Assembly (NCBI GenBank): GCA_031413715.1
Contig: JANOFO010000003.1
Location: 11,047-75,046 of the forward strand
Reading direction: 5' to 3'
From: Minisyncoccota bacterium
Lineage (GTDB): Bacteria > Patescibacteriota > Minisyncoccia > Phycocordibacterales > UBA9973
DNA: 64,000 bases
Made by a program: the position numbers and the translations under genes. Below are positions 9,535 through 56,438 of the stretch, one piece after another (within the stretch, counting starts at the first letter, position 1; each line of letters begins with the position of its first letter). The notes beneath the pieces are model-generated. The model had not been told where the DNA came from. It saw only the letters and a list, made by a program, of their open reading frames with translations, and made no database searches.

Positions 9535-9617
9535 GCGTCGGTGGTGGAGTGGTCTAACACATCAGACTGTAAATCTGACGGCCTTGGCCTTCGTTGGTTC
9601 GAATCCAACCCGGCGCA
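9535..9617 (+). tRNA. tRNA-Tyr (anticodon GTA); long variable arm; CCA not encoded
   Basis: Acceptor stem gcgtcgg/ccggcgc with one G-U pair. Anticodon loop gaCTGTAAAtc. Long variable arm (cggccttggccttcg). T-arm gttggTTCGAATccaac. Discriminator A. Confidence 0.85.
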
Positions 9618-18164: not shown

Positions 18165-18239
18165 GGCGTGGTGGCGAAGTGGTAACGCTTCGGTCTGCAA
18201 AACCGACATGCGCGGGTTCAATTCCCGCCCACGCCTCCA
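18165..18239 (+). tRNA. tRNA-Cys (anticodon GCA); CCA encoded
   Basis: Acceptor stem ggcgtgg/ccacgcc. Anticodon loop tCTGCAAAa. T-arm gcgggTTCAATTcccgc. The sequence ends tCCA. Confidence 0.85.
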
Positions 18240-18384: not shown

Positions 18385-18471
18385 GCCGGGGTGGCGAAAT
18401 TGGTAGACGCACTGCTCTTAGGAAGCAGCGAGAGTAATCTCATGGAAGTTCAAGTCTTCTCCCCGGCACCA
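18385..18471 (+). tRNA. tRNA-Leu (anticodon TAG); long variable arm; CCA encoded
   Basis: Acceptor stem gccgggg/ccccggc. Anticodon stem-loop ctgctCTTAGGAagcag. Long variable arm. T-arm ggaagTTCAAGTcttct. The sequence ends aCCA. Confidence 0.85.
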
Positions 18472-46380: not shown

Positions 46381-46953
46381 TTATATTTTAATTATCTCTT
46401 TGACTTTCTTTACAACTTGCTTTGGTGACAAGCGAGTATTATCTATCTCTATATTATACTTCACCGGGGCAGGAGTATTCCAATCTTTTTCTTTCTTCAT
46501 TATTTGCCTCATTATCTTAGGATCAGCAAGTTTGTTCAATTTCTTCCTTGATTTCCCTGATACACGCTTGATAAGAGCATTTCGATCAGCAGTCAGGTGA
46601 ACGAAATACGCTTTCCCACCGGCCTTCTCAATAAATGATTGAATTTTCTTCACAAACATAGGATCACTTAAACCTGTCAATGAAACATAATCTGCCGAAT
46701 ACGCATGAGTAGTTACAGTATTCAAATGGCCTTTTGAGATTTCTTCAAATATAGACAATCTCAATGTTTCAACTAAACGATTGAGGTTTAGGGTGTCTCT
46801 CTCAAAAAGTTCTCTGGCAATATCGTAAGTATGGTGATTATGGAAAAATTTATATCCAGTCTGTTTTTGGAATTCTTTAGCTACTGTATATTTACCTACA
46901 GCAAACGGGCCATAGAATGTGACAACATTGAATTTGGGTTTTTTAGTTTTCAT
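46381..46953 (-). CDS. P-loop NTPase / small-molecule kinase-like protein
   Basis: 190 aa. Walker A (TFYGPFAVGKYT). It has the size and layout of the AAA_33 / nucleoside-kinase fold. Substrate unknown. Confidence 0.5.
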   Translation of the reverse strand: MKTKKPKFNVVTFYGPFAVGKYTVAKEFQKQTGYKFFHNHHTYDIARELFERDTLNLNRLVETLRLSIFEEISKGHLNTVTTHAYSADYVSLTGLSDPMFVKKIQSFIEKAGGKAYFVHLTADRNALIKRVSGKSRKKLNKLADPKIMRQIMKKEKDWNTPAPVKYNIEIDNTRLSPKQVVKKVKEIIKI

Positions 46954-47483
46954 TTAAAATTTACTGAACATTTCTAATATAGGAGGGAAAAATAGAGAAG
47001 TGACAAATTTACTTTTTTCTTGCTCAGAAAGATTTTTAATACTTTCTATAGAATACTCTTCAAATCCAGCTCCATCTTCAGGTTCGATTTTTAAATCGAA
47101 AATTGTACCAGAAAAATTATAGCCAAAAAAATATCGAAGTGCATTATTTATAGTTTTTGTTTCAGGATCTTCATTTCGAAAAAGAACCCTACCAAGATAT
47201 TTAAGATTATCAATACTTTCCTCAATACCAGTTTCTTCTCTTAATTCGTTAATCGCTGCTTGTTCAATAGTTTGATCAAGTTCAACATGGCCACTTACGG
47301 AAAAGGTTAGTTTGCCAGGATGCGTTTCTTTAGTAATTGAACGTTTCTGGAAAACAAATTTATCATTAGGTAACTTTATAAGAACAAATACCTCTGGGTG
47401 CAGTAGCCCTTTTTGGTGAACAACGGATCTTTCTTCAGAACCTATTACATCTCCACGCTCATTAATAAGAGGTATTTTCATAA
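46954..47483 (-). CDS. NUDIX hydrolase (the ORF track extends it upstream to 47613 with a hydrophobic N-terminus)
   Basis: Nudix box (SGHVELDQTIEQAAINELREETGIEE). Start taken at MKIPLINERGD. Confidence 0.7.
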
Positions 47484-47554
47484 CTACCCCAGTATAACAA
47501 AATAAACCAATCCCATGAAGAGATTGGTTTATCAATGTTTTGTTATAAATTATT

Positions 47555-47974
47555 TTACTCGTCACGAAAGTCGAGCCAAAAAGGACAATAATTACCAACT
47601 GGTTGTCCGTCAATATTTATGGGCATAGTGCCGCTGCCAATATTGAAGATTTTTTTCGCAGGATTGCCATCATTCTCATTACAAGCAAGATGACAATCTC
47701 CTTTACCAGTAGCATACACTGAGCCCATTTCTCCCCGGTAGAAACAATTTCTACATGTTCTTTGTACAACCCCATCTGTTGGAGTATATAATACTTCCGT
47801 AGGTGTTAATTCTTTTTTTGGATCATCTTTCGTTTCTGCAGCGATGAATGGCTGCCCGTTAAGGAGACGCAAGCCTCCTTTTTTAACAGTAAGACCTTTT
47901 TTCATAACAATAAGTTTATTTTTTGATTTTGAATATTCAGTTACATTATAGCACGCGAAATCCCATGTTGTCAA
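47555..47974 (-). CDS. Hypothetical Cys-rich small protein (probable start MKKGLTVKKGG.. at about 47905)
   Basis: ~116-139 aa. CRNCFYRGEMGSVYATGKGDCHLACNENDG...YCPFW, with 5-6 Cys suggesting a metal site. No family recognised. Embedded in the nucleotide operon. Confidence 0.4.
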   Translation of the reverse strand: MTTWDFACYNVTEYSKSKNKLIVMKKGLTVKKGGLRLLNGQPFIAAETKDDPKKELTPTEVLYTPTDGVVQRTCRNCFYRGEMGSVYATGKGDCHLACNENDGNPAKKIFNIGSGTMPINIDGQPVGNYCPFWLDFRDE

Positions 47975-47980
47975 TATTTA

Positions 47981-48673
47981 CTATTTAAGTAATTTTCGAA
48001 CTTTTCCATAAACCTCCTCATGTATATCTTCGCGAGTGCGGAGAATATTCTTTTGGGCACATTCTATCTGCTTGAATTCGGGCTGCGTCTTGGCGAGCCA
48101 AAGAGCGCTCTTGCGAGAATTTGTAAGGTATTCAACATTTCCTTCTACTATATCTTTCTTCTTGCCTAGATATGTGCGTTTAGATTTCTTGTTGCGTTCT
48201 TTAATAAGATTCAAGATAACAGACATCGGAAGGTTAAGATAAAAAACCACATCGGGTCGAGGAATTTTGAAAACTTTATATTCCATCTCATCTAGCCACT
48301 TTATAAATGCTGCACGCTTAGCCGCATTCTTGATCTTGCCTCCTTGGTGGATCTGATTGGCGCTCACATAGCGATTCGCAAGGACTATGTAGCCCCGCTT
48401 GAGCCAGCCTTCGATCTCTGCTTTTGATTCAAACCGGTCACCTGCATAGAGTACCGAGGCGATCTTTGGATGAACTTTGACGAAATTATAATATTGTTCA
48501 GAAAGGCAGTGACCGATAAATTTACCGAAAAAGTTCTTGTAGTATTCTGGAAAGTCTACATTCTTAACTATATACCCTTCTTTCTTTAATCTTTTAGTCA
48601 ACAAATCCACCTGGGTTGCTTTTCCGCTACCATCCGTACCGTCTATTACTATGAGTTTACCTTTTCTTTTCAT
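47981..48673 (-). CDS. tmk: Thymidylate (dTMP) kinase
   Basis: 230 aa. P-loop (IVIDGTDGSGKATQ). DRY/LID region (LYAGDRFESKAEIEGWLKRGYIVLANRYVSANQIHQGG) aligns well with the Tmk DR(H/Y)...S..AYQG block. Confidence 0.75.
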   Translation of the reverse strand: MKRKGKLIVIDGTDGSGKATQVDLLTKRLKKEGYIVKNVDFPEYYKNFFGKFIGHCLSEQYYNFVKVHPKIASVLYAGDRFESKAEIEGWLKRGYIVLANRYVSANQIHQGGKIKNAAKRAAFIKWLDEMEYKVFKIPRPDVVFYLNLPMSVILNLIKERNKKSKRTYLGKKKDIVEGNVEYLTNSRKSALWLAKTQPEFKQIECAQKNILRTREDIHEEVYGKVRKLLK

Positions 48674-48677
48674 TGTT

Positions 48678-49109
48678 CTACTTTATCGCATCGTAGTAAT
48701 TCTTGCCAGTTTTGTATGATTCAATAGCAAGACCTGTCTGTATAAATACAGGATCAGGTAACTTACCAAGATCATACCATCCCCAATCTTCAAGTTTTTC
48801 AGGTTCGAGTACCTGCGGTTCTCCGCTTTCCCAATCAGCAAGTAAGACTATATTTACATAATGCTTTGGAGCATAGTGAAAAATATTTCCTACATGCAAG
48901 AATCGAATATTTTTAATCTGAATTCCTGTTTCCTCTAATGTTTCACGTCGAGCACAATCTTCAAATGACTCCATGTACTCTAGATGTCCACCTGGAAATG
49001 CATATTCACCTATGCCATGGGAACTTTTCCGCTTACCCATCAAGACCTTGCCATCTTTCAAGATCATGATCCCCATACCAACTCTTGGTCTTTGATTTTC
49101 TGTATCCAT
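48678..49109 (-). CDS. NUDIX hydrolase
   Basis: 143 aa. Nudix box (GGHLEYMESFEDCARRETLEETGI). Confidence 0.8.
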   Translation of the reverse strand: MDTENQRPRVGMGIMILKDGKVLMGKRKSSHGIGEYAFPGGHLEYMESFEDCARRETLEETGIQIKNIRFLHVGNIFHYAPKHYVNIVLLADWESGEPQVLEPEKLEDWGWYDLGKLPDPVFIQTGLAIESYKTGKNYYDAIK

Positions 49110-49110
49110 A

Positions 49111-49518
49111 TTATTTTAAAAACTTATTTAGAATTATTTTTACATCATTCAAATCTTTATACTCTTCTACTTGGAATGCACTGTTGCCACTCACCATAGC
49201 AGAAAGTGATTTATCTGGGACATGTCTGTAGAGACAGAGTACTTTTTTATGTAGATTCTCGGCAATCCCGAGCTCATAGCCTACGCCAAGCGATGGAGTC
49301 GTAACTTCGGCCACTATCATGTCGGAATTTTTGAGCCATTTCATATCTCTATTGTATATAAACTCTGCAGCCTTTTGTTCCCCTTTTTCAGATATGCTAG
49401 CATCACCAATATGCTCAGTCAGAATTTCTCCGTAACTTTTCAATATCTCTATAATCTGAACATACAACTCTCTATCATCTCGCCCTCCCCGTATTGAACC
49501 TGCAAAGTATATTTTCAT
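49111..49518 (-). CDS. 2'-deoxynucleoside 5'-phosphate N-hydrolase (DNPH1/Rcl family)
   Basis: 135 aa. KIYFAGSIRGGRDDRELY...ILTEHI...VAEVTTPSLGVGYELG...SLSAMV...FQVEEY aligns closely along its length with my memory of the animal DNPH1/Rcl sequence, including the catalytic E in VGYELG. Confidence 0.75.
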   Translation of the reverse strand: MKIYFAGSIRGGRDDRELYVQIIEILKSYGEILTEHIGDASISEKGEQKAAEFIYNRDMKWLKNSDMIVAEVTTPSLGVGYELGIAENLHKKVLCLYRHVPDKSLSAMVSGNSAFQVEEYKDLNDVKIILNKFLK

Positions 49519-49523
49519 AATTA

Positions 49524-50087
49524 CTATTCTAAATTAAATTTGTTTAAAAATAAATCGATCTCCTTATGGAAAGCTTCCAAGTCAGAATTATTCAGAATAG
49601 AATAATCTGCAAGTTTCAGACATTCAAAAACTCGCGGTAAATTTGGCAGAGAATTCTCAGTTTTTTCATTTTGAATAAATTCTTCTAATGTTGTTGCTTC
49701 TCCTAATTTATTGCGATTTACGCTTCTTTCAAATCGAACTTTTGTATCAGCTTCAATTACAAGCAATGCAAGGTTTGAATTCGCACGCATATATTCTATT
49801 GTGCCCAAAATTCGCATGCCAGTTATTATCCCTCTATCACCAGTGATTCTATTTAGAGCAAGTCTGGCAAAATGATCAGGACCCTTTTCCTTAACAAGAC
49901 TATTGCCTATCTTGATGAGATTTTCTCTCGTTGGTTCGATATTGTCTTCCTTTGCTAGATCTCTCAATATCTCGCTTATTGGGGAAGAAGGTATTTTTAA
50001 TTTTTTCGAAATATATTCTGCTGCCGTATCTTTACCAGAACTAATAGTACCAATAATACCAATTATAGTTTTTCTTCCTTGGTTCAT
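49524..50087 (-). CDS. dNMP kinase-like P-loop kinase (phage T4 gp1-like SGKDT motif)
   Basis: 187 aa. IIGIIGTISSGKDTAAEYI matches the T4 gp1 motif GVKRSGKDTTADFI. The overall size is also similar to gp1. Confidence 0.5.
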   Translation of the reverse strand: MNQGRKTIIGIIGTISSGKDTAAEYISKKLKIPSSPISEILRDLAKEDNIEPTRENLIKIGNSLVKEKGPDHFARLALNRITGDRGIITGMRILGTIEYMRANSNLALLVIEADTKVRFERSVNRNKLGEATTLEEFIQNEKTENSLPNLPRVFECLKLADYSILNNSDLEAFHKEIDLFLNKFNLE

Positions 50088-50088
50088 A

Positions 50089-50550
50089 TCATTTCGTTCC
50101 TAACTCTTTTAAAGCTTCGGTTGCGAGGTGCAAAACATTAGGACGAAGGTTCATATTGTTAAGCTCCTCCTTGCTGACCCAACGTGTTTCAGTAAGCTCG
50201 TGCTCGCTTTCCGAATTTAAAACCTTATCGGAATCCGTTGTAGCAAAATATACAAGAACAATATGTTCGTGTGTTTCATTTACCAAATGTTTTCCTAAGT
50301 ATCGAGGAGACGGCAGATAAGAATAATCGTCGTCATCAAAAATAGGAACTTCGCTTTGTATCTTAATATCTAATCCGACCTCTTCTTTCACTTCACGATA
50401 CGCTGCCTCGATGGGATCCTCATCAAGTTCTATATGCCCGCCAACAGAAAGCCAAATTTTATACTTGTCATGCATCCGAAGAAGCACCTTGTCCTTGTAA
50501 ACAATGAATACTTCTACTGTATAGTCGACTTTTTCGTGAAGGTGGGGCAT
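50089..50550 (-). CDS. NUDIX hydrolase
   Basis: 153 aa. Nudix box (GGHIELDEDPIEAAYREVKEEVGL). Confidence 0.8.
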   Translation of the reverse strand: MPHLHEKVDYTVEVFIVYKDKVLLRMHDKYKIWLSVGGHIELDEDPIEAAYREVKEEVGLDIKIQSEVPIFDDDDYSYLPSPRYLGKHLVNETHEHIVLVYFATTDSDKVLNSESEHELTETRWVSKEELNNMNLRPNVLHLATEALKELGTK

Positions 50551-50551
50551 G

Positions 50552-50980
50552 TTAATTAATCATACCAATAATCTCGCTAATATACTTATCTAAATTCTCT
50601 AGTGTTTTTAATTCTTCAGCCAAGAACCACTCATATTTATCATGCTCATCGCTAAGCTTTACTTTCCCTTTAGCCTGTCCTACATATGTAAGCCGGACGA
50701 CATGCTTATCTTCCTTTAATATATCTTGAGCAGAGAGGAGCTTTGGTTCCCCAACAAGTTCAAGCCCTGTTTCTTCAAGAACTTCTCTTTTAAGATTCTC
50801 TAAAAGAGAGACTCCTATATCTATTCGTCCTCCTGGAATATCCCAGATATCACGATCTTTTATTTCCGGATATTTCTCTTTAGAACGCTGAAGCAGGAGA
50901 TAGTTCCCTTCTTCATTTCTCAATAAAATTTTTACGCCAACTTGGAGATTCATATAAATAGAATATAACAAAAACAACAT
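50552..50980 (-). CDS. NUDIX hydrolase, first gene of the long minus-strand nucleotide operon
   Basis: 142 aa. Nudix box (GGRIDIGVSLLENLKREVLEETGLE). Confidence 0.75.
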   Translation of the reverse strand: MLFLLYSIYMNLQVGVKILLRNEEGNYLLLQRSKEKYPEIKDRDIWDIPGGRIDIGVSLLENLKREVLEETGLELVGEPKLLSAQDILKEDKHVVRLTYVGQAKGKVKLSDEHDKYEWFLAEELKTLENLDKYISEIIGMIN

Positions 50981-51003
50981 CAGAAATCCACCAGATCCAA
51001 AAG

Positions 51004-51037
51004 TGACACAAATTAGGCCATGGCGTAATTTGTGTCA
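51004..51037. promoter_or_regulatory. 34-bp palindrome 1 (TGACACAAATTAGGCCA|TGGCGTAATTTGTGTCA), a probable operator in the divergent promoter region
   Basis: 16 of 17 positions are self-complementary. Centred on CCATGG. It lies between the minus-strand NUDIX operon start (50980) and the plus-strand wHTH gene start (51066). Its right arm overlaps a candidate -35 for the plus-strand gene. Confidence 0.6.
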
Positions 51038-51065
51038 GTGTTGCTACAATGATAGAATAAGTTAT

Positions 51066-51545
51066 ATGTCTATAGTTGGGGAAATTTTGAAAGAATTGTG
51101 GGAAACTGAACATACCTATAAAGGTACTAAGGTAAACATCTTCGGTATCCCTCGTTTTAAAAAGTACTCCAAACGAACTTTGCGCTCTACTATCGACAGG
51201 CTTGCCAAAAAAGAAATAATTCAAAAAGAGATAGCTGGCATCGTCCTTTCAAAAAATGGTAGGCGTTATGTCAAAAGGAAGATGGACTCGCTTCACTCAT
51301 TTGAAAAACCTGACTATGCTTCTCTGTCAAAGAATCTCGTCGTTATGTTTGATATTCCTACGGAAAGAAAAGCGGAGCGAGAATGGCTGCGTTTCCATTT
51401 AAAAAAGTTTGGTTACATTATGATACAAAAAAGTGTGTGGGTTGGGCCTTCTCCTCTACCGAAAGAATTTAAAGATTATATTAAGAGCATTAAACTTCAT
51501 AATTGCATAAAAACATTTAAGCTGGCTAAACCATACAAAACATAA
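51066..51545 (+). CDS. Small winged-helix + Cas2-like (VapD/Cas2 fold) protein, a putative regulator
   Basis: 160 aa from the ATG at 51066. The ORF track's upstream GTG start only translates the palindrome. N-terminal K/R-rich wHTH-like region (..RSTIDRLAKKEIIQKEIAGIVLSKNGRRYV..). C-terminal LVVMFDIPTERKAEREWLRFHLKKFGYIMIQKSVWVGP resembles the Cas2 core (..VYDI...R...L...G.R.Q.SVF..). Confidence 0.45.
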   Translation: MSIVGEILKELWETEHTYKGTKVNIFGIPRFKKYSKRTLRSTIDRLAKKEIIQKEIAGIVLSKNGRRYVKRKMDSLHSFEKPDYASLSKNLVVMFDIPTERKAEREWLRFHLKKFGYIMIQKSVWVGPSPLPKEFKDYIKSIKLHNCIKTFKLAKPYKT

Positions 51546-51565
51546 TTATATAAGTAAAATCATGG

Positions 51566-51599
51566 TGACACATTTTCTGCCATGGCAGAAAATGTGTCA
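51566..51599. promoter_or_regulatory. 34-bp perfect palindrome 2 (TGACACATTTTCTGCCA|TGGCAGAAAATGTGTCA)
   Basis: Perfect 17+17 inverted repeat, 20 nt after the stop of the wHTH/Cas2-like gene. It shares the outer TGACACA/TGTGTCA and central CCATGG with palindrome 1. No flanking T-run, so it is not a typical intrinsic terminator. Confidence 0.6.
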
Positions 51600-51643
51600 A
51601 ACGTAAAAGTTATAATATATAGTAGATGCTTAATCTAAAATAT

Positions 51644-52222
51644 TTATAGATATTCTATTAATTGCTCATAGACTTCTGGTCTGTTCACTCGCAATGTTTC
51701 CCCTGTTTTGGTTGGAAGCTTAGCCATAGAAAGACCATATTGGTTGGCAAATGCAATAATTTTGTCCTCGGCAGCTTTGATCTCTGATTCATCGTTAACC
51801 AAAAGTTCTATTTCGCACGCTTTGAGTCCTGTTTCTATCTCGTCAATATCAATTAAAAATCCTTCTTTCTTATACTTCGTACGGTGAGTAGTAAAGCTTA
51901 CAAGTTCTTCTAAATTTTTCTTTACTTCAGTTTCTAAATAACTATCTGTATCAAATCCTAGTTTCTCGAGAATTTCTTTCTCATTTGTAATTTCTATAGC
52001 ATGCTTAGCTTTTTCGTTAGTGTCAGTTCCTATCTGAATCTTGAGTTCATAACTGCCATCTCGTTTACGCAATTTTATTTTCGCTTCACTTTTAAAATAA
52101 TCAAATGTGGGAGTATCGTAATAAATATCTCGAATTGATTTGTCTTCAACAAATTCTGCTCCTTCAAGCAAAGCTTTGAGCTGTTCATATGTTGGTTGAA
52201 ATTTCTTTTCTATCTCAATCAT
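51644..52222 (-). CDS. CYTH-domain protein (triphosphate tunnel metalloenzyme), co-operonic with glyA
   Basis: 192 aa. N-terminal MIEIEKKF (ExExK) and alternating acidic beta strands (..ELKIQIGTDTNEK.., ..EIELLVNDESE..). Its start overlaps the glyA stop (ATGA). Confidence 0.55.
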   Translation of the reverse strand: MIEIEKKFQPTYEQLKALLEGAEFVEDKSIRDIYYDTPTFDYFKSEAKIKLRKRDGSYELKIQIGTDTNEKAKHAIEITNEKEILEKLGFDTDSYLETEVKKNLEELVSFTTHRTKYKKEGFLIDIDEIETGLKACEIELLVNDESEIKAAEDKIIAFANQYGLSMAKLPTKTGETLRVNRPEVYEQLIEYL

Positions 52223-53496
52223 ACAAAACTCTTTGGTATCGGGTGCTTATGGGCTAGGGCTTTTACTTTCTCTTTTATTTCGGCTTTTTTGTCTGCATTA
52301 TCTTTGTTCTTGAGGGTCTCAATAAGGAGCTTGGCAACTTCGGCACAATCTTCTTCTTTGAATCCACGAGTAGTGATGGCTGGCGTGCCGAAACGAATAC
52401 CGGATGGATCAAGTGGCTTACGGGTATCATTTGCGATCGAGTTCATATTAAGGGTAATACCAACTTCATCAAGTACCGTCTGAGCTTCCTTTCCTGTAAC
52501 CCCAAGGGAGCCAAATACATCAGCAAGGATGAGGTGGTTATCTGTTCCCCCGCCGATCATGCGGACACCTTCATCTTTCAGAACTTTCTCCATTGCTTTG
52601 GCATTTTTTAATATCTGAGCTGCATATACTTTAAATTCTGGTCGGAGAGCTTCACCGAAGGCGATAGCTTTCGCAGCAATCGTGTGCATATGCGGGCCGC
52701 CTTGAATGCCTGGAAAGATAGATTTATCTATCTTTTTTGCGATCTCTTCATTCTCTCTAGTGAGGATCATACCACCACGCGGACCGCGAAGAGTTTTATG
52801 AGTAGTGGTTGTGATGATATCAAATCCGAAATCAAATGGATTTGGCAAAACTTTTGCAGCTATGAGTCCTGCGATGTGCGCCATATCAGCCATTGTGATC
52901 GCACCGACTTCTTTTGCAATGTCAACAAACTTCTGATAATTAAGATTGCGGGAATAAGCAGAGAATCCGGCAAGAATTATTTTAGGTTTCTTCTCGATTG
53001 CTACCTGGCGAAGGGCTTCATAGTCGATCTCGCCTGTCTCCGGATCTTTCATCTTGTAAGTCACGAAATTATAGATCTTTGCAGGAAGGGTCATCGGGTG
53101 GCCGTGTGTAAGATGCCCGCCATGAGAGAGATCCATGCCGAGCACGGTATCGCCGGGTTCAAGAAGAGCAGAGTAAACAGCAAGGTTGGCAGGGGCGCCG
53201 GAGTGTGGCTGAACATTCGCGAATTTGCAATCAAAAAGCTTGCACGCCCTTTCAATTGCCAATCGCTCGACTTGATCGGTAAATTCCTGCCCTCCGTAAT
53301 AACGACGTCCAGGATAGCCTTCAGAGTATTTGTTGGTAAGAACTGAGCCGTTGGCTTCCCGAACCGCCATAGAGACATAATTCTCGGAAGGTATTAGCTC
53401 AAGACCATCTTCTTCCCGTAATGTTTCCCCTTCTATCGCTTGTAGTATTTCCTTGTCTTGTTCTTCTATATACATCCCGATAGTGAAAAATGGCAT
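52219..53496 (-). CDS. glyA: Serine hydroxymethyltransferase
   Basis: 425 aa. ..LELIPSENYVSMAVREANGSVLTNKYSEGYPGRRYYGG.., PLP-Lys region (TTTTHKTLRGPRGG). Confidence 0.9.
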   Translation of the reverse strand: MPFFTIGMYIEEQDKEILQAIEGETLREEDGLELIPSENYVSMAVREANGSVLTNKYSEGYPGRRYYGGQEFTDQVERLAIERACKLFDCKFANVQPHSGAPANLAVYSALLEPGDTVLGMDLSHGGHLTHGHPMTLPAKIYNFVTYKMKDPETGEIDYEALRQVAIEKKPKIILAGFSAYSRNLNYQKFVDIAKEVGAITMADMAHIAGLIAAKVLPNPFDFGFDIITTTTHKTLRGPRGGMILTRENEEIAKKIDKSIFPGIQGGPHMHTIAAKAIAFGEALRPEFKVYAAQILKNAKAMEKVLKDEGVRMIGGGTDNHLILADVFGSLGVTGKEAQTVLDEVGITLNMNSIANDTRKPLDPSGIRFGTPAITTRGFKEEDCAEVAKLLIETLKNKDNADKKAEIKEKVKALAHKHPIPKSFV

Positions 53497-53630
53497 TATG
53501 TGTTGGCCGTTTTCAATTTTAATTAAGTAATAGTATAAAGCTAGGTTTTAAAACTAACTCCAGTGGTATCCCCGCACATGATAGGCTATGCCATTTTCTA
53601 CTACGGGATACATACACCGATTTTAGCATG

Positions 53631-53658
53631 TTGAACAAGAAATCAAAAACTGTATAAT
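53631..53658 (+). promoter_or_regulatory. Sigma70-like promoter of the thyX-like/dcd operon
   Basis: TTGAAC-16 nt-TATAAT, ending 6 nt before the ATG at 53665 (a very short leader). Confidence 0.5.
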
Positions 53659-53664
53659 GAGACT

Positions 53665-55020
53665 ATGCAATCTGGTAATATTGAAGAGCTCAAACACACA
53701 AAAGTGTCAATCAATGGCGGAGGAGTGGTCATCATCCTAGATACTGGATCAGTGATAGGACCTGAATCTTCGGCGATGCTACAAGCTCTTCACTCAAGAT
53801 CAACAAGTGGGCTTGAAGGTCATCTTGAAATTCTAGCTAAAAGAGGTTCTGAGAATTTCATGAAGAATTTCTATGTCGGATACGGACACAAATCTATCGG
53901 TGACTGTGGTACTGCATCTATTTTTATCGAAGGAGTATCTCTGCTTGTTGCAAAAGCTATACAAGACTGGCCTCTATATTCCGGACAAGAATCTTCTACA
54001 AGATATGTGGATTTCAGAGTACAACCTTTCAAAAATCCCATGGGTTTTGATGAGGGAAATAAAATACTAGAAACTTGGAGACAATTTTACATAGATTCAT
54101 TTGATAAGACGGTGGAATATTTAAAAACTCAATTCCCGATCGGCGAAGGAGAATCAGAATCTATTTATATAAAAGCAATAAATGCTCGGGCTTTTGATAC
54201 CTTACGTGGATTCCTACCAGCAGGTGCAGTTACAAACCTCGCTTGGTCTACCAACCTACGCCAAGCGGCGGATAAATTACTTGTTCTGCGACATCATCCA
54301 CTTTTGGAAGTCCGAGAAACAGCCGAAGCAATAGAGAAAGCTTTGATTGGAGCATACCCAAATTCGTTCGGCCACAAGAGATACGAAGCCACAGAAGAAT
54401 ACAATAAATATTGTATGGAGAATGATTACTATTATCACAATCCTAAATGTCCAGATTTCGAGATGACTTCAAATTCTATTGATGTAAAACTTCTACCGAG
54501 AGAAACACTCGAAAAACGTCCAGCAAAAACAGAACTGCCAAAACATTTGGGCGAATCTGGCACTATCCAATTTGAATTCCTACTTGATTTCGGATCATTC
54601 CGAGATATACAGAGACATCGTGCCATAATCCAGCGAATGCCATTACTGACAACAGAGCTCGGATTTGAAGAATGGTATATATATGAACTTCCAGAATCTA
54701 TACGAGAAAAAGCAAAAGCACTTTTAAAATCACAGGAGGAGAAAATTGCGTCACTCTCTATTTCGAAAGAAGAGAAGCAATATTATATAGCAATGGGTTA
54801 CAAAATTTCTAATCGCATAACCGGTAATCTACCTTCACTAGTATATTTGGCAGAGCTCCGCGCAACACGATTCGTCCACCCTACTCTTCGCAAGAGAGCG
54901 AAACAACTTGCAGACAAATTATCGGAGATATTTGGGAAGGATGGCTTGATAATTCACTTAGACGAAGAACCCGACCGATTTGACATAAAGCGTGGTGAGC
55001 ACGATATTGTGCTAAAATAA
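53665..55020 (+). CDS. Long, divergent ThyX-like (flavin-dependent thymidylate synthase family) protein
   Basis: 451 aa. GHKSIGDCGTASIFIEGVSLLVAKAIQDWPLYSGQESSTRY aligns to the ThyX core (GHxSPFEHxxFTFxIEG.S....Q..RHR-X7-S..RY), but DWP replaces the RHR. A separate RHR occurs later (FRDIQRHRAIIQRM) and an LR..R..H block follows (AELRATRFVHPTLRK). The protein is about twice the length of a canonical ThyX. Based on a memory-based alignment only. Confidence 0.5.
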   Translation: MQSGNIEELKHTKVSINGGGVVIILDTGSVIGPESSAMLQALHSRSTSGLEGHLEILAKRGSENFMKNFYVGYGHKSIGDCGTASIFIEGVSLLVAKAIQDWPLYSGQESSTRYVDFRVQPFKNPMGFDEGNKILETWRQFYIDSFDKTVEYLKTQFPIGEGESESIYIKAINARAFDTLRGFLPAGAVTNLAWSTNLRQAADKLLVLRHHPLLEVRETAEAIEKALIGAYPNSFGHKRYEATEEYNKYCMENDYYYHNPKCPDFEMTSNSIDVKLLPRETLEKRPAKTELPKHLGESGTIQFEFLLDFGSFRDIQRHRAIIQRMPLLTTELGFEEWYIYELPESIREKAKALLKSQEEKIASLSISKEEKQYYIAMGYKISNRITGNLPSLVYLAELRATRFVHPTLRKRAKQLADKLSEIFGKDGLIIHLDEEPDRFDIKRGEHDIVLK

Positions 55021-55024
55021 TACT

Positions 55025-55561
55025 ATGATTCTCTCTGATACGAAGATACTTGAGCATGTAGAAAAGGGCGATATAGTTATAACGCCATTTGATGTCGCCA
55101 ACATGGGTGGCAATTCGTATGATGTGCATTTGAGTAAATATTTTGCTCAATATATTGATAGTGAAATTGACGCAAAAAAGCATAATCAAATAAAACATTT
55201 TGAAATACGAGAAGAAGGATTCGTACTCATGCCCGGTGAGCTATACCTTGCCTCTACCCTAGAATACACAGAGTCGCATATCCACGTGCCATTCCTAGAA
55301 GGAAAATCTTCTACTGGCAGACTTGGCGTAGATATACATGCGACAGCAGGCAAAGGCGATGTCGGGTTCTGCGGATATTGGACTCTTGAAATCTCAACAT
55401 CAAAACCGGTGCGCATTTATCCTGGTATGCCGATTGGACAGCTCATTTACTATGTCGTAGAAGGTCCAGTCGAGCGTCTCTATCATAAAAAAGCGACAGC
55501 CAAGTATTCTCATCAAGAGAACTTACCAAAGGAGTCAATGATGTGGAAAAATTTTAAATAA
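55025..55561 (+). CDS. dcd: dCTP deaminase
   Basis: 178 aa. MILSDTKILEHVEKGDIVITPFD...GNSYDVHL...GELYLASTLEYT...GKSSTGRLGV is typical Dcd. Confidence 0.85.
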   Translation: MILSDTKILEHVEKGDIVITPFDVANMGGNSYDVHLSKYFAQYIDSEIDAKKHNQIKHFEIREEGFVLMPGELYLASTLEYTESHIHVPFLEGKSSTGRLGVDIHATAGKGDVGFCGYWTLEISTSKPVRIYPGMPIGQLIYYVVEGPVERLYHKKATAKYSHQENLPKESMMWKNFK

Positions 55562-55562
55562 G

Positions 55563-55598
55563 AAATGGCTGGTTCCTTAATAAAGGAACCAGCCATTT
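55563..55598. terminator. Bidirectional hairpin between dcd and pnp
   Basis: aaatggctggttcc-ttaataa-aggaaccagccattt (14-bp stem). Confidence 0.55.
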
Positions 55599-55616
55599 GA
55601 ATAAAATGAAAAATTC

Positions 55617-56438
55617 TTAAAGAGCTTTAATCACTGACGACAGGTAACTACCAAGCTGTCCCGAGAATTGCTTGGCCTTTTTTATATTATCTTCATGCGA
55701 ATGAATTCCAACAGCGTCGTTTGTAATAAACGCAAGTGAGAGAACTCTCGTTTTGTAGAGGGCTGCAACAGCAACTTCTGGTATTGTACTCATGCCTACT
55801 GCTTTGGCACCTGTATATGATAAGGCTAATTTGTCATATTTGCGACCTTCGAAGTTAGGGCCGAGCACCATAACATAGCCACCGGTGACAATCTTTCCGT
55901 TATACGCTTTCCGATTTTGGAGAGCGAGTTTCATTAGATCCTTGGACAATACATCGTCCGGTGAAGCGAATTCACTCACCCATAGAGGAAGTGGTACGTA
56001 CAGACTGACAAAGCCATCAATAACAACTAGGCACCCAGGCTCCAGTTTACTCTTTGGTAGTGCTCCTGCTGCACAGGTTGTAATCAACGTCTTAACACCT
56101 AATTTCATTAAAATTTCAGTTTGCAACCTAACCATCAAATAAATTGCTAGGCTACAAGGCTCTTCGTTCAGATGGATCCGTCCCTGTAGAACAATCACTT
56201 CTTTTCCTGCAACAGTACCATGGACAAACCTTCTGTTGTGGCCCTCTAACTTTCCCAATCTTGAAAAGCCAGGAACCTTTTCAAAGTTGATATACTGTGG
56301 ATTTTCAATCTTCAACTTATCCCCCCAACCTGTTCCCAAAATGATGCCAAGCCGAATGGGTTTTTTAATTTTAAATTTTTTACGTAAAAAATCAGCAGCT
56401 TTTGTCGCGGCAATTTCGCGGTTTCTATTTCTTTTCAT
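55617..56438 (-). CDS. Purine nucleoside phosphorylase / MTA phosphorylase (PNP-UDP family, trimeric type)
   Basis: 273 aa. ..LGIILGTGWG.., ..HNRRFVHGTVAGKEVIVLQGRIHL.., ..TTCAAGAL.., ..MSTIPEVAVA.. Confidence 0.8.
   Translation of the reverse strand: MKRNRNREIAATKAADFLRKKFKIKKPIRLGIILGTGWGDKLKIENPQYINFEKVPGFSRLGKLEGHNRRFVHGTVAGKEVIVLQGRIHLNEEPCSLAIYLMVRLQTEILMKLGVKTLITTCAAGALPKSKLEPGCLVVIDGFVSLYVPLPLWVSEFASPDDVLSKDLMKLALQNRKAYNGKIVTGGYVMVLGPNFEGRKYDKLALSYTGAKAVGMSTIPEVAVAALYKTRVLSLAFITNDAVGIHSHEDNIKKAKQFSGQLGSYLSSVIKAL

Follow-up and report, generated by a model that had tools for sequence, protein, structure and literature searches.

We identify a gene for a two-domain ThyX protein in a 64-kb (64,000-nucleotide) stretch of DNA from a Minisyncoccota bacterium (assembly GCA_031413715.1, contig JANOFO010000003.1, positions 11,047 to 75,046), which was analysed as a whole and is hereafter termed the window. 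The 451-residue product of this gene genuinely belongs to the ThyX superfamily, although it has diverged strongly, and is made of two ThyX-fold domains in tandem, not of a single stretched domain. On the strength of its architecture, fold, residue map, conservation and gene context we predict that it is probably a functional flavin-dependent thymidylate synthase (FDTS), which would convert deoxyuridine monophosphate (dUMP), methylenetetrahydrofolate (CH2-THF) and reduced nicotinamide adenine dinucleotide phosphate (NADPH) to deoxythymidine monophosphate (dTMP) and act as a dimer with two active sites. The gene and its two domains are as follows:

53665-55020, + strand: tandem ThyX (Thy1-Thy1) gene, ATG start, intact open reading frame (ORF) of 451 codons
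53665-54384, + strand: N-terminal ThyX domain (residues 1-240), from Pfam, hhalign and hidden Markov model (HMM) alignment
54385-55017, + strand: C-terminal ThyX domain (residues 241-451), from Pfam, AlphaFold2 (AF2), Foldseek and hhalign

A search with the Pfam Thy1 model (PF02511; gathering cut-off 24.8 bits) recovered the 451-residue protein over two stretches with a score of 66.2 bits (E = 4e-18), a match far beyond chance. Its divergence is evident from the structure-linked searches: a single-sequence phmmer search against all chains in the PDB returned zero matches and a narrow profile of close homologues only chance ones, while a diverse profile of 102 sequences reached the solved ThyX proteins, aligning that of Mycobacterium tuberculosis (Mtb; 3gwc) with an E-value of 1.5e-7. 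The full-length AF2 model built from the same 102-sequence alignment has a mean predicted local distance difference test score (pLDDT) of 95.6 and a predicted template modelling score of 0.92. When it was compared with the PDB using Foldseek, the top 50 matches were all ThyX structures, with a target-normalised TM-score of about 0.65. A first-pass annotation of this DNA, made from the letters alone, had recognised a Thy1/ThyX core, and the PF02511 search bears this out; the two outcomes that it named as contrary to its proposal, a lack of Thy1 similarity and a placement in an unrelated family, were both looked for and did not appear.

To characterise the two regions separately we cut the protein at residue 241. 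The N-terminal half alone matches Thy1 with 49.5 bits (E = 6e-13) and aligns by hhalign with the ThyX proteins of Thermotoga maritima (Tm), M. tuberculosis and Corynebacterium glutamicum (E = 2.2e-8, probability 95%); the T. maritima sequence used was checked and is identical to 1kq4. The C-terminal half also aligns by hhalign with canonical ThyX (E = 7.7e-4), with its RHR motif in register, and when modelled separately with AF2 it attains a pLDDT of 93.9. The top 50 PDB matches of this model are all ThyX structures (probability 1.0, root-mean-square deviation 3-4 Å over about 141 columns). Since a profile search with the C half only retrieved no ThyX, its identity as a ThyX domain rests on the Pfam match, the hhalign alignment and the structure model. 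BLASTP detected no internal repeat within the protein, and aligning its two halves with each other by hhalign yielded an E-value of only 0.004. The similarity between the halves is almost gone, and therefore the protein stems either from an ancient duplication or from a fusion of two distant lineages. The first-pass annotation had envisaged the motifs as spread over one domain of twice the usual size; that picture gives way to the tandem one, as each half matches Thy1 by itself and the residues lost from the two halves are complementary.

Two candidates for naturally separate domains were rejected. One family member (L082; Logan SRR11567540, 3680-3750) is read as two overlapping ORFs of 248 and 208 residues, suggestive of an N/C split; the frame switches at a run of C (gcgcccctcac), so that the gene is a fused one with a 1-nt frameshift, arising from a sequencing error or marking a pseudogene. 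The other, P0253, had appeared as a separate single-domain gene and is a truncated call at a contig end.

Canonical ThyX is, according to reviews, a homotetramer with four identical active sites (PMC6514825, PMC5954106). In the M. tuberculosis enzyme three subunits contribute to each of these (PMC6514825). Subunit A places the RHR motif on the phosphates and ribityl of flavin adenine dinucleotide (FAD), with Arg95 also touching the flavin and dUMP, and binds dUMP through Arg199; subunit B provides Ser71 and Arg190, both of which contact FAD; and subunit C provides the Gln103 backbone, Arg87, Ser105, Arg107 and the Tyr108 lid (PMC6514825). The RHR is thus mainly a ligand of the FAD phosphates and ribityl, and not primarily the binder of the dUMP phosphate for which it had been taken at first pass. 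Docking on 3GWC places the contact of its first arginine with dUMP at the 3'-OH, and makes Mtb R172 a contact of the dUMP phosphate (PMC9571937); PMC6514825 assigns no subunit to the latter residue.

We then mapped these residues onto the window protein using two agreeing alignments, namely that of the family HMM with 3gwc and that produced by hhalign with Tm ThyX. The principal elements are:

53887-53895, + strand: H75-K76-S77, FAD-contacting GH-S motif with a subunit-B role (alignments; role from PMC6514825)
53965-53973, + strand: D101-W102-P103 at the canonical RHR position (both alignments)
53992-54006, + strand: S110-S111-T112-R113-Y114, subunit-C role (both alignments)
54205-54207, + strand: R181, equivalent to Tm R147 / Mtb R172, present in the N domain only (phosphate contact from docking, PMC9571937)
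54613-54621, + strand: R317-H318-R319, the sole RHR of the protein, subunit-A role (aligned to Tm R78-H79-R80)
54859-54879, + strand: R399...H405 (LRATRFVH), R399 being equivalent to Tm R174 / Mtb R199, subunit-A role (hhalign)
54988-55008, + strand: C-terminal tail K-R443-G-x-(Q/H)-D-I, residues 442-448 (family alignment)

In the N domain the further equivalences are H75 with Tm H53 / Mtb H69, S77 with Tm T55 / Mtb S71, K97 with Tm R74 / Mtb H91, E109 with Tm E86 / Mtb Q103, S111 with Tm S88 / Mtb S105, R113 with Tm R90 / Mtb R107, Y114 with Tm Y91 / Mtb Y108, R199 with Tm R165 / Mtb R190, V207 with Tm R174 / Mtb R199 and H211 with Tm H178 / Mtb H203. In the C domain Q372 corresponds to Tm R147 and P390 to Tm R165, and H405 lies near Tm H178, with an offset of two residues in the ungapped alignment. 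The complete RHR-x7-S(-x-RY) motif occurs within neither domain. The N domain reads DWP-x7-S-T-R-Y, retaining the spacing from the RHR position to the serine (D101 to S111, +10), and the ten residues that follow the RHR of the C domain (AIIQRMPLLT) are without a Ser-x-Arg-Tyr. R317-H318-R319 begins 216 residues past D101, with L398-R399...H405 further on. The kept X7-S spacing and the displacement of the RHR and LR...H blocks by some 220 residues, both picked out at first pass, agree with these alignments. When the two domains are combined, the FAD- and dUMP-contacting set (Tm RHR, R174, S88, R90, Y91, R147, R165 and H53/T55) is complete.

An exhaustive representative search yielded 125 diverse full-length relatives (35-54% identity), in which conservation at the mapped positions was counted. 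Arranged by subunit role (Tm/Mtb numbering), the positions are:

Role A, R78/R95: N domain D101 (D in 102/125); C domain R317 (R in 125/125)
Role A, H79/H96: N domain W102, variable (W in 23/125); C domain H318 (H in 109/125)
Role A, R80/R97: N domain P103 (P in 78/125); C domain R319 (R in 125/125)
Role A, R174/R199: N domain V207, variable; C domain R399 (R in 125/125)
Role B, T55/S71: N domain S77 (S in 125/125); C domain, no equivalent
Role B, R165/R190: N domain R199 (R in 102/125); C domain P390 (P in 62/125)
Role C, E86/Q103: N domain E109 (E in 122/125); C domain M325
Role C, S88/S105: N domain S111 (S in 125/125); C domain L327
Role C, R90/R107: N domain R113 (R in 125/125); C domain T329
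Role C, Y91/Y108: N domain Y114 (Y in 121/125); C domain T330
Subunit not assigned, R147/R172: N domain R181 (R in 116/125); C domain Q372 (Q in 122/125)

Conservation extends to H75 (121/125), K97 (K in 121/125) and H405 (125/125). The N domain keeps the residues of subunits B and C together with R181, and has lost the RHR and the equivalent of Tm Arg174; the C domain is left with the subunit-A set alone (R317, H318, R319 and R399), having lost the S-x-RY as well as Tm R147 and R165. This division holds throughout the family, in that none of the best 150 representatives has an RHR in the first half and none has a correctly spaced S-x-RY in the second. The replacement of RHR by DWP noted at first pass is hence correct in position, as both alignments place it there, but the triplet itself is a feature of a sub-clade; the family-wide rule is the absence of RHR from domain 1, and the segment that takes its place is conserved as Q-D-x-P-L-Y.

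The retained residues of known subunit role all fall into one symmetry-related pair of sites, and the lost ones into the other pair. In the ThyX tetramer, which has D2 symmetry, subunits (A, B, C) serve site 1 in the roles (alpha, beta, gamma), and applying the three dyads gives (B, A, D), (C, D, A) and (D, C, B) for the remaining sites. Were two chains of the window protein to assemble as such a tetramer, with A and D occupied by C domains and B and C by N domains, sites 1 and 4 would be fully supplied with the required residues and sites 2 and 3 would obtain none. The one dyad left (A<->D, B<->C) would become the axis of a homodimer. It is because the residue losses are complementary under D2 symmetry that we favor such a homodimeric pseudo-tetramer, predicted to hold two FAD/dUMP sites with each N domain serving both.

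The conservation pattern also includes a C-terminal tail with no canonical ThyX counterpart, in which R443 (125/125) and G444 (119/125) stand out. In the full model its pLDDT is 84-87, but in the model of the isolated C half it is about 54-83; the tail therefore probably lies packed against the N domain.

To better understand the metabolic role of the protein we examined the genes close to it:

55025-55561, + strand: dcd (dCTP deaminase), Pfam DCD 127 bits; TIGR02274 119.5 bits against a cut-off of 92.8
52219-53496, - strand: glyA (serine hydroxymethyltransferase, SHMT), Pfam SHMT 525.6 bits; NF000586 578.9 bits
47981-48673, - strand: tmk (thymidylate kinase), Pfam Thymidylate_kin 66.9 bits, 5 kb from thyX

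The thyX and dcd genes lie on the same strand with a 4-nt spacer (TAA-tact-ATG), an arrangement that points to translational coupling of dcd to thyX, and glyA is divergent from thyX, 168 bp upstream; the operon with dcd and the divergent glyA had both been noted at first pass, and the junction and the gap agree with this. The co-transcribed dCTP deaminase would supply dUMP, either directly or through dUTP, the SHMT would supply CH2-THF, and the nearby thymidylate kinase would consume the dTMP formed. Comparable associations recur among 80 related loci, nearly all titled Patescibacteria, of which 24 have dcd and 25 have glyA within 6 kb; in the frameshifted member L082 described above, the family gene is flanked by tmk and dcd, with tmk directly adjoining. 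The gene context supports a role in dTMP synthesis.

Several observations weigh against a functional, dimeric two-site FDTS. On TIGR02170, the thyX equivalog model of NCBIfam with a cut-off of 87.9 bits, the protein reaches only 29.1. The C half alone reaches only 20.4 bits (E = 4.7e-4) on Thy1, under the 24.8-bit cut-off, and its hhalign probability is only 25%; because this sequence evidence is weak, the residue map of the C domain rests partly on structural register. Where Mtb has R87 (subunit C), the N domain carries a hydrophobic residue; judging from the alignment, we assume that K97 may substitute for it. The two-site scheme gives no role to the invariant R313-D314, four residues ahead of the RHR of the C domain, or to the invariant R443 of the tail. 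Moreover, we found in the literature no assayed member of the tandem ThyX family. W337-Y338, Q372-Y373 and S44-R45 are further invariant residues outside the scheme. Of all these, R313-D314, W337-Y338, Q372-Y373 and the tail may line the pseudo-sites or close over the active site.

These residues, and the distance of the family from assayed ThyX proteins, bear on several other explanations. The dead pseudo-sites might have been rebuilt as a new pocket, used for docking NADPH or folate or as an allosteric nucleotide site and made of the Q-D-x-P-L-Y segment, R313-D314, W337-Y338 and the C-terminal tail. We regard this as doubtful; if true, it would present a ThyX that separates in space the steps that canonical ThyX takes in turn at one site. 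We likewise think it unlikely that all four sites of the pseudo-tetramer work (two per chain), with R313, R443, K97 and others standing in for the lost residues. The invariant basic residues left without an assignment (R313, R443, R45 and R409) would fit this, as would the conservation of the segment replacing the RHR, which suggests some function. However, the second pair of sites would miss the RHR, Arg174, Ser88, Arg90, Tyr91, Arg147 and Arg165 together, and the loss of two sites is a far more parsimonious explanation than a substitution of the entire set.

A different proposal, also raised at first pass, sees in the protein a flavin methyltransferase that derives from ThyX and whose substrate is some other pyrimidine nucleotide (UMP, dCMP or similar). 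Neofunctionalised paralogues of ThyX do exist, as exemplified by PolB of the Streptomyces polyoxin biosynthesis pathway, a C5-methylase of UMP/dUMP (PMC5954106), and the window protein is far from any assayed ThyX, with no phmmer match in the PDB and a TIGR02170 score far below the cut-off; the extra invariant R313-D314, W337-Y338 and R443 tail, which are without canonical counterparts, could be seen in the same light. Yet the equivalents of Tm Ser88, Tyr91, Arg90, Arg174 and Arg147, for which a part in catalysis or a contact with dUMP has been reported, are essentially invariant, and this argues for dUMP methylation and not for a new substrate: the uracil-reading R113 and R399 are present in all 125 relatives, and the serine, the tyrosine and the phosphate-binding arginine are conserved alongside them. 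The neighbors, moreover, are dcd, glyA and tmk rather than an antibiotic or DNA-modification cluster; the window has no genes of a nucleoside-antibiotic biosynthetic cluster, the adjoining genes being housekeeping ones of deoxynucleotide metabolism, and no second thymidylate synthase was seen within its 64 kb. A change of substrate is accordingly without positive support, and we consider it improbable. That the protein is a catalytically dead relic of ThyX or a regulatory nucleotide- or flavin-binding protein, as the lack of a complete motif in either single domain might suggest, is very unlikely indeed. Purifying selection acts strongly on the catalytic residues, as seen over at least 590 genomes at species level and about 2,000 clusters (50% identity), the two halves hold between them all mapped active-site residues bar the arginine at Mtb R87 (for which K97 is presumed), and the gene is kept beside substrate-supplying genes and is retained by phages as well. 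The Thy1 assignment and the thymidylate-synthesis context thus leave the functional but rearranged ThyX, already suggested at first pass, as the best-supported reading.

The family is widely distributed. A word-indexed search recovered 4,098 relatives among 8,000 scored candidates, those with names being mostly from Patescibacteria and labelled 'FAD-dependent thymidylate synthase' or 'thymidylate synthase ThyX'. The exhaustive search yielded 1,948 clusters (50% identity), of which 496 reach E <= 1e-30, with lengths of 430-500 residues in nearly every case, and in a collection with one genome per species at least 590 matching stretches encode a relative. The same architecture with the same split of motifs is found in jumbo phages of Vibrio (32% identical across 93% of the length), where the homologues are mostly annotated as 'hypothetical protein'. 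Examples are vB_VmeM-Yong (MS32) (L084, 3929-5314; QAX97196.1, 'hypothetical protein') and Vibrio phage BONAISHI, which also has a homologue. Another case is gp020 of the Microcystis phage Ma-LMM01 (L085, 1387-2862), a 491-residue 'thymidylate synthase' with the same two-domain split. The full model of the window protein has a TM-score of 0.88 to the BFVD entry A0A6B7EUB9 and of 0.71 to Ma-LMM01 gp020. The phage homologues sit among nucleotide-metabolism genes, and gp020 is expressed as a middle gene alongside ribonucleotide reductase and dUTPase. They differ from the window protein in sequence (24-32% identity), in their hosts and in their genomic surroundings; we found no biochemical characterisation of these phage two-domain proteins in the literature.

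Canonical ThyX, as represented by TM0449 (1O26) and Rv2754c (3GWC), shares with the window protein the fold of both domains, the metabolic context, the expected chemistry and, minus the arginine at Mtb R87, the combined residue set. It differs in being a single domain of about 220-260 residues with the whole RHR-x7-S-x-RY motif and four identical sites, as against fused domains of about 240 and 210 residues, a split motif, two predicted sites and an extra tail. A laboratory parallel reportedly comes from Leduc et al. in 2004, who are said to have mixed complementary inactive ThyX mutants in vitro into heterotetramers. These reportedly follow the same principle, a site at a three-monomer interface being built from subunits with different missing residues; they were mixtures of point mutants, whereas the complementarity in the family described here is natural, covalently fused, ancient and fixed. 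PolB resembles the window protein in being a flavoenzyme of ThyX fold that has moved away in sequence from the housekeeping enzyme (PMC5954106). It sits in an antibiotic pathway, in contrast to the tandem protein encoded beside dcd, glyA and tmk. We take PolB to be a single-domain paralogue. Chlamydial ThyX, reportedly found active as an FDTS by Griffin et al. in 2005, is presumably about 529 residues long, roughly double the usual length, and may share the tandem architecture. The chlamydial gene was left out of the original ThyX phylogeny as too divergent (PMC6171736). In the literature we found no account of ThyX in a tandem, fused or double-length form. The enzyme family is already annotated, and its split two-domain architecture is one that we could not find described.

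A natural family that has fused two subunits and partitioned its catalytic residues offers a ready-made asymmetric ThyX, which reveals which residues must come from which protomer. With half the sites, it would also lend itself to work on how sites communicate and in what order substrates bind. Because ThyX is absent from humans it is being pursued as an antibacterial target, and if the chlamydial enzyme indeed shares this architecture it would be relevant to inhibitor design. For annotation, the poor score on the standard thyX model arises because subunits have been fused and catalytic residues partitioned; hence, reduced genomes failing the thyX equivalog should not be counted as being without thymidylate synthesis, and the Vibrio jumbo phage records of 'hypothetical protein' could be re-annotated.

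The thyX locus is enclosed by an island of deoxynucleotide genes (46381-56438), in which the remaining genes and two candidate expression signals are:

46381-46953: P-loop kinase-like gene
46954-47613: NUDIX gene (Pfam-scanned)
48678-49109: NUDIX-like ORF (read from the translation)
49111-49518: nucleoside 2-deoxyribosyltransferase gene
49524-50087: AAA_18 kinase-like gene
50089-50980: two NUDIX-like ORFs (read from the translation)
51644-52222: gene for a CYTH-domain protein
53631-53658, + strand: promoter-like TTGAAC-16-TATAAT (consensus match only), ending 6 nt before the thyX ATG
55563-55598: hairpin with a 16-bp perfect stem, AAATGGCTGGTTCCTT-TATT-AAGGAACCAGCCATTT, between the stop codons of the convergent dcd and purine nucleoside phosphorylase (PNP) genes
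55617-56438: PNP gene, convergent with dcd

The hairpin is likely a bidirectional terminator ending the thyX-dcd operon. Promoter-like sites around the thyX locus are not above the number expected from shuffled sequence, and no clear Shine-Dalgarno sequence precedes the thyX ATG; if the 53631-53658 promoter is real, the thyX-dcd transcript would have little or no leader. The 46381-56438 island showed no dedicated dUTPase, so that either a bifunctional dcd or a NUDIX enzyme may be the source of dUMP. An Rfam scan of the window recovered three tRNAs only (9535-9617, 18165-18236 and 18385-18468), with no riboswitch or other known RNA near the thyX locus.

Lastly, the island includes a gene at 51003-51545 (+) for a 180-residue protein that matches the PaaX central Cas2-like domain with 51.7 bits and CRISPR_Cas2 with 24.4 bits, the latter barely over the cut-off. 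It has an N-terminal winged-helix-like match and stands alone amid nucleotide-metabolism genes, with no CRISPR array noted nearby. Possibly, this protein regulates the deoxynucleotide island.

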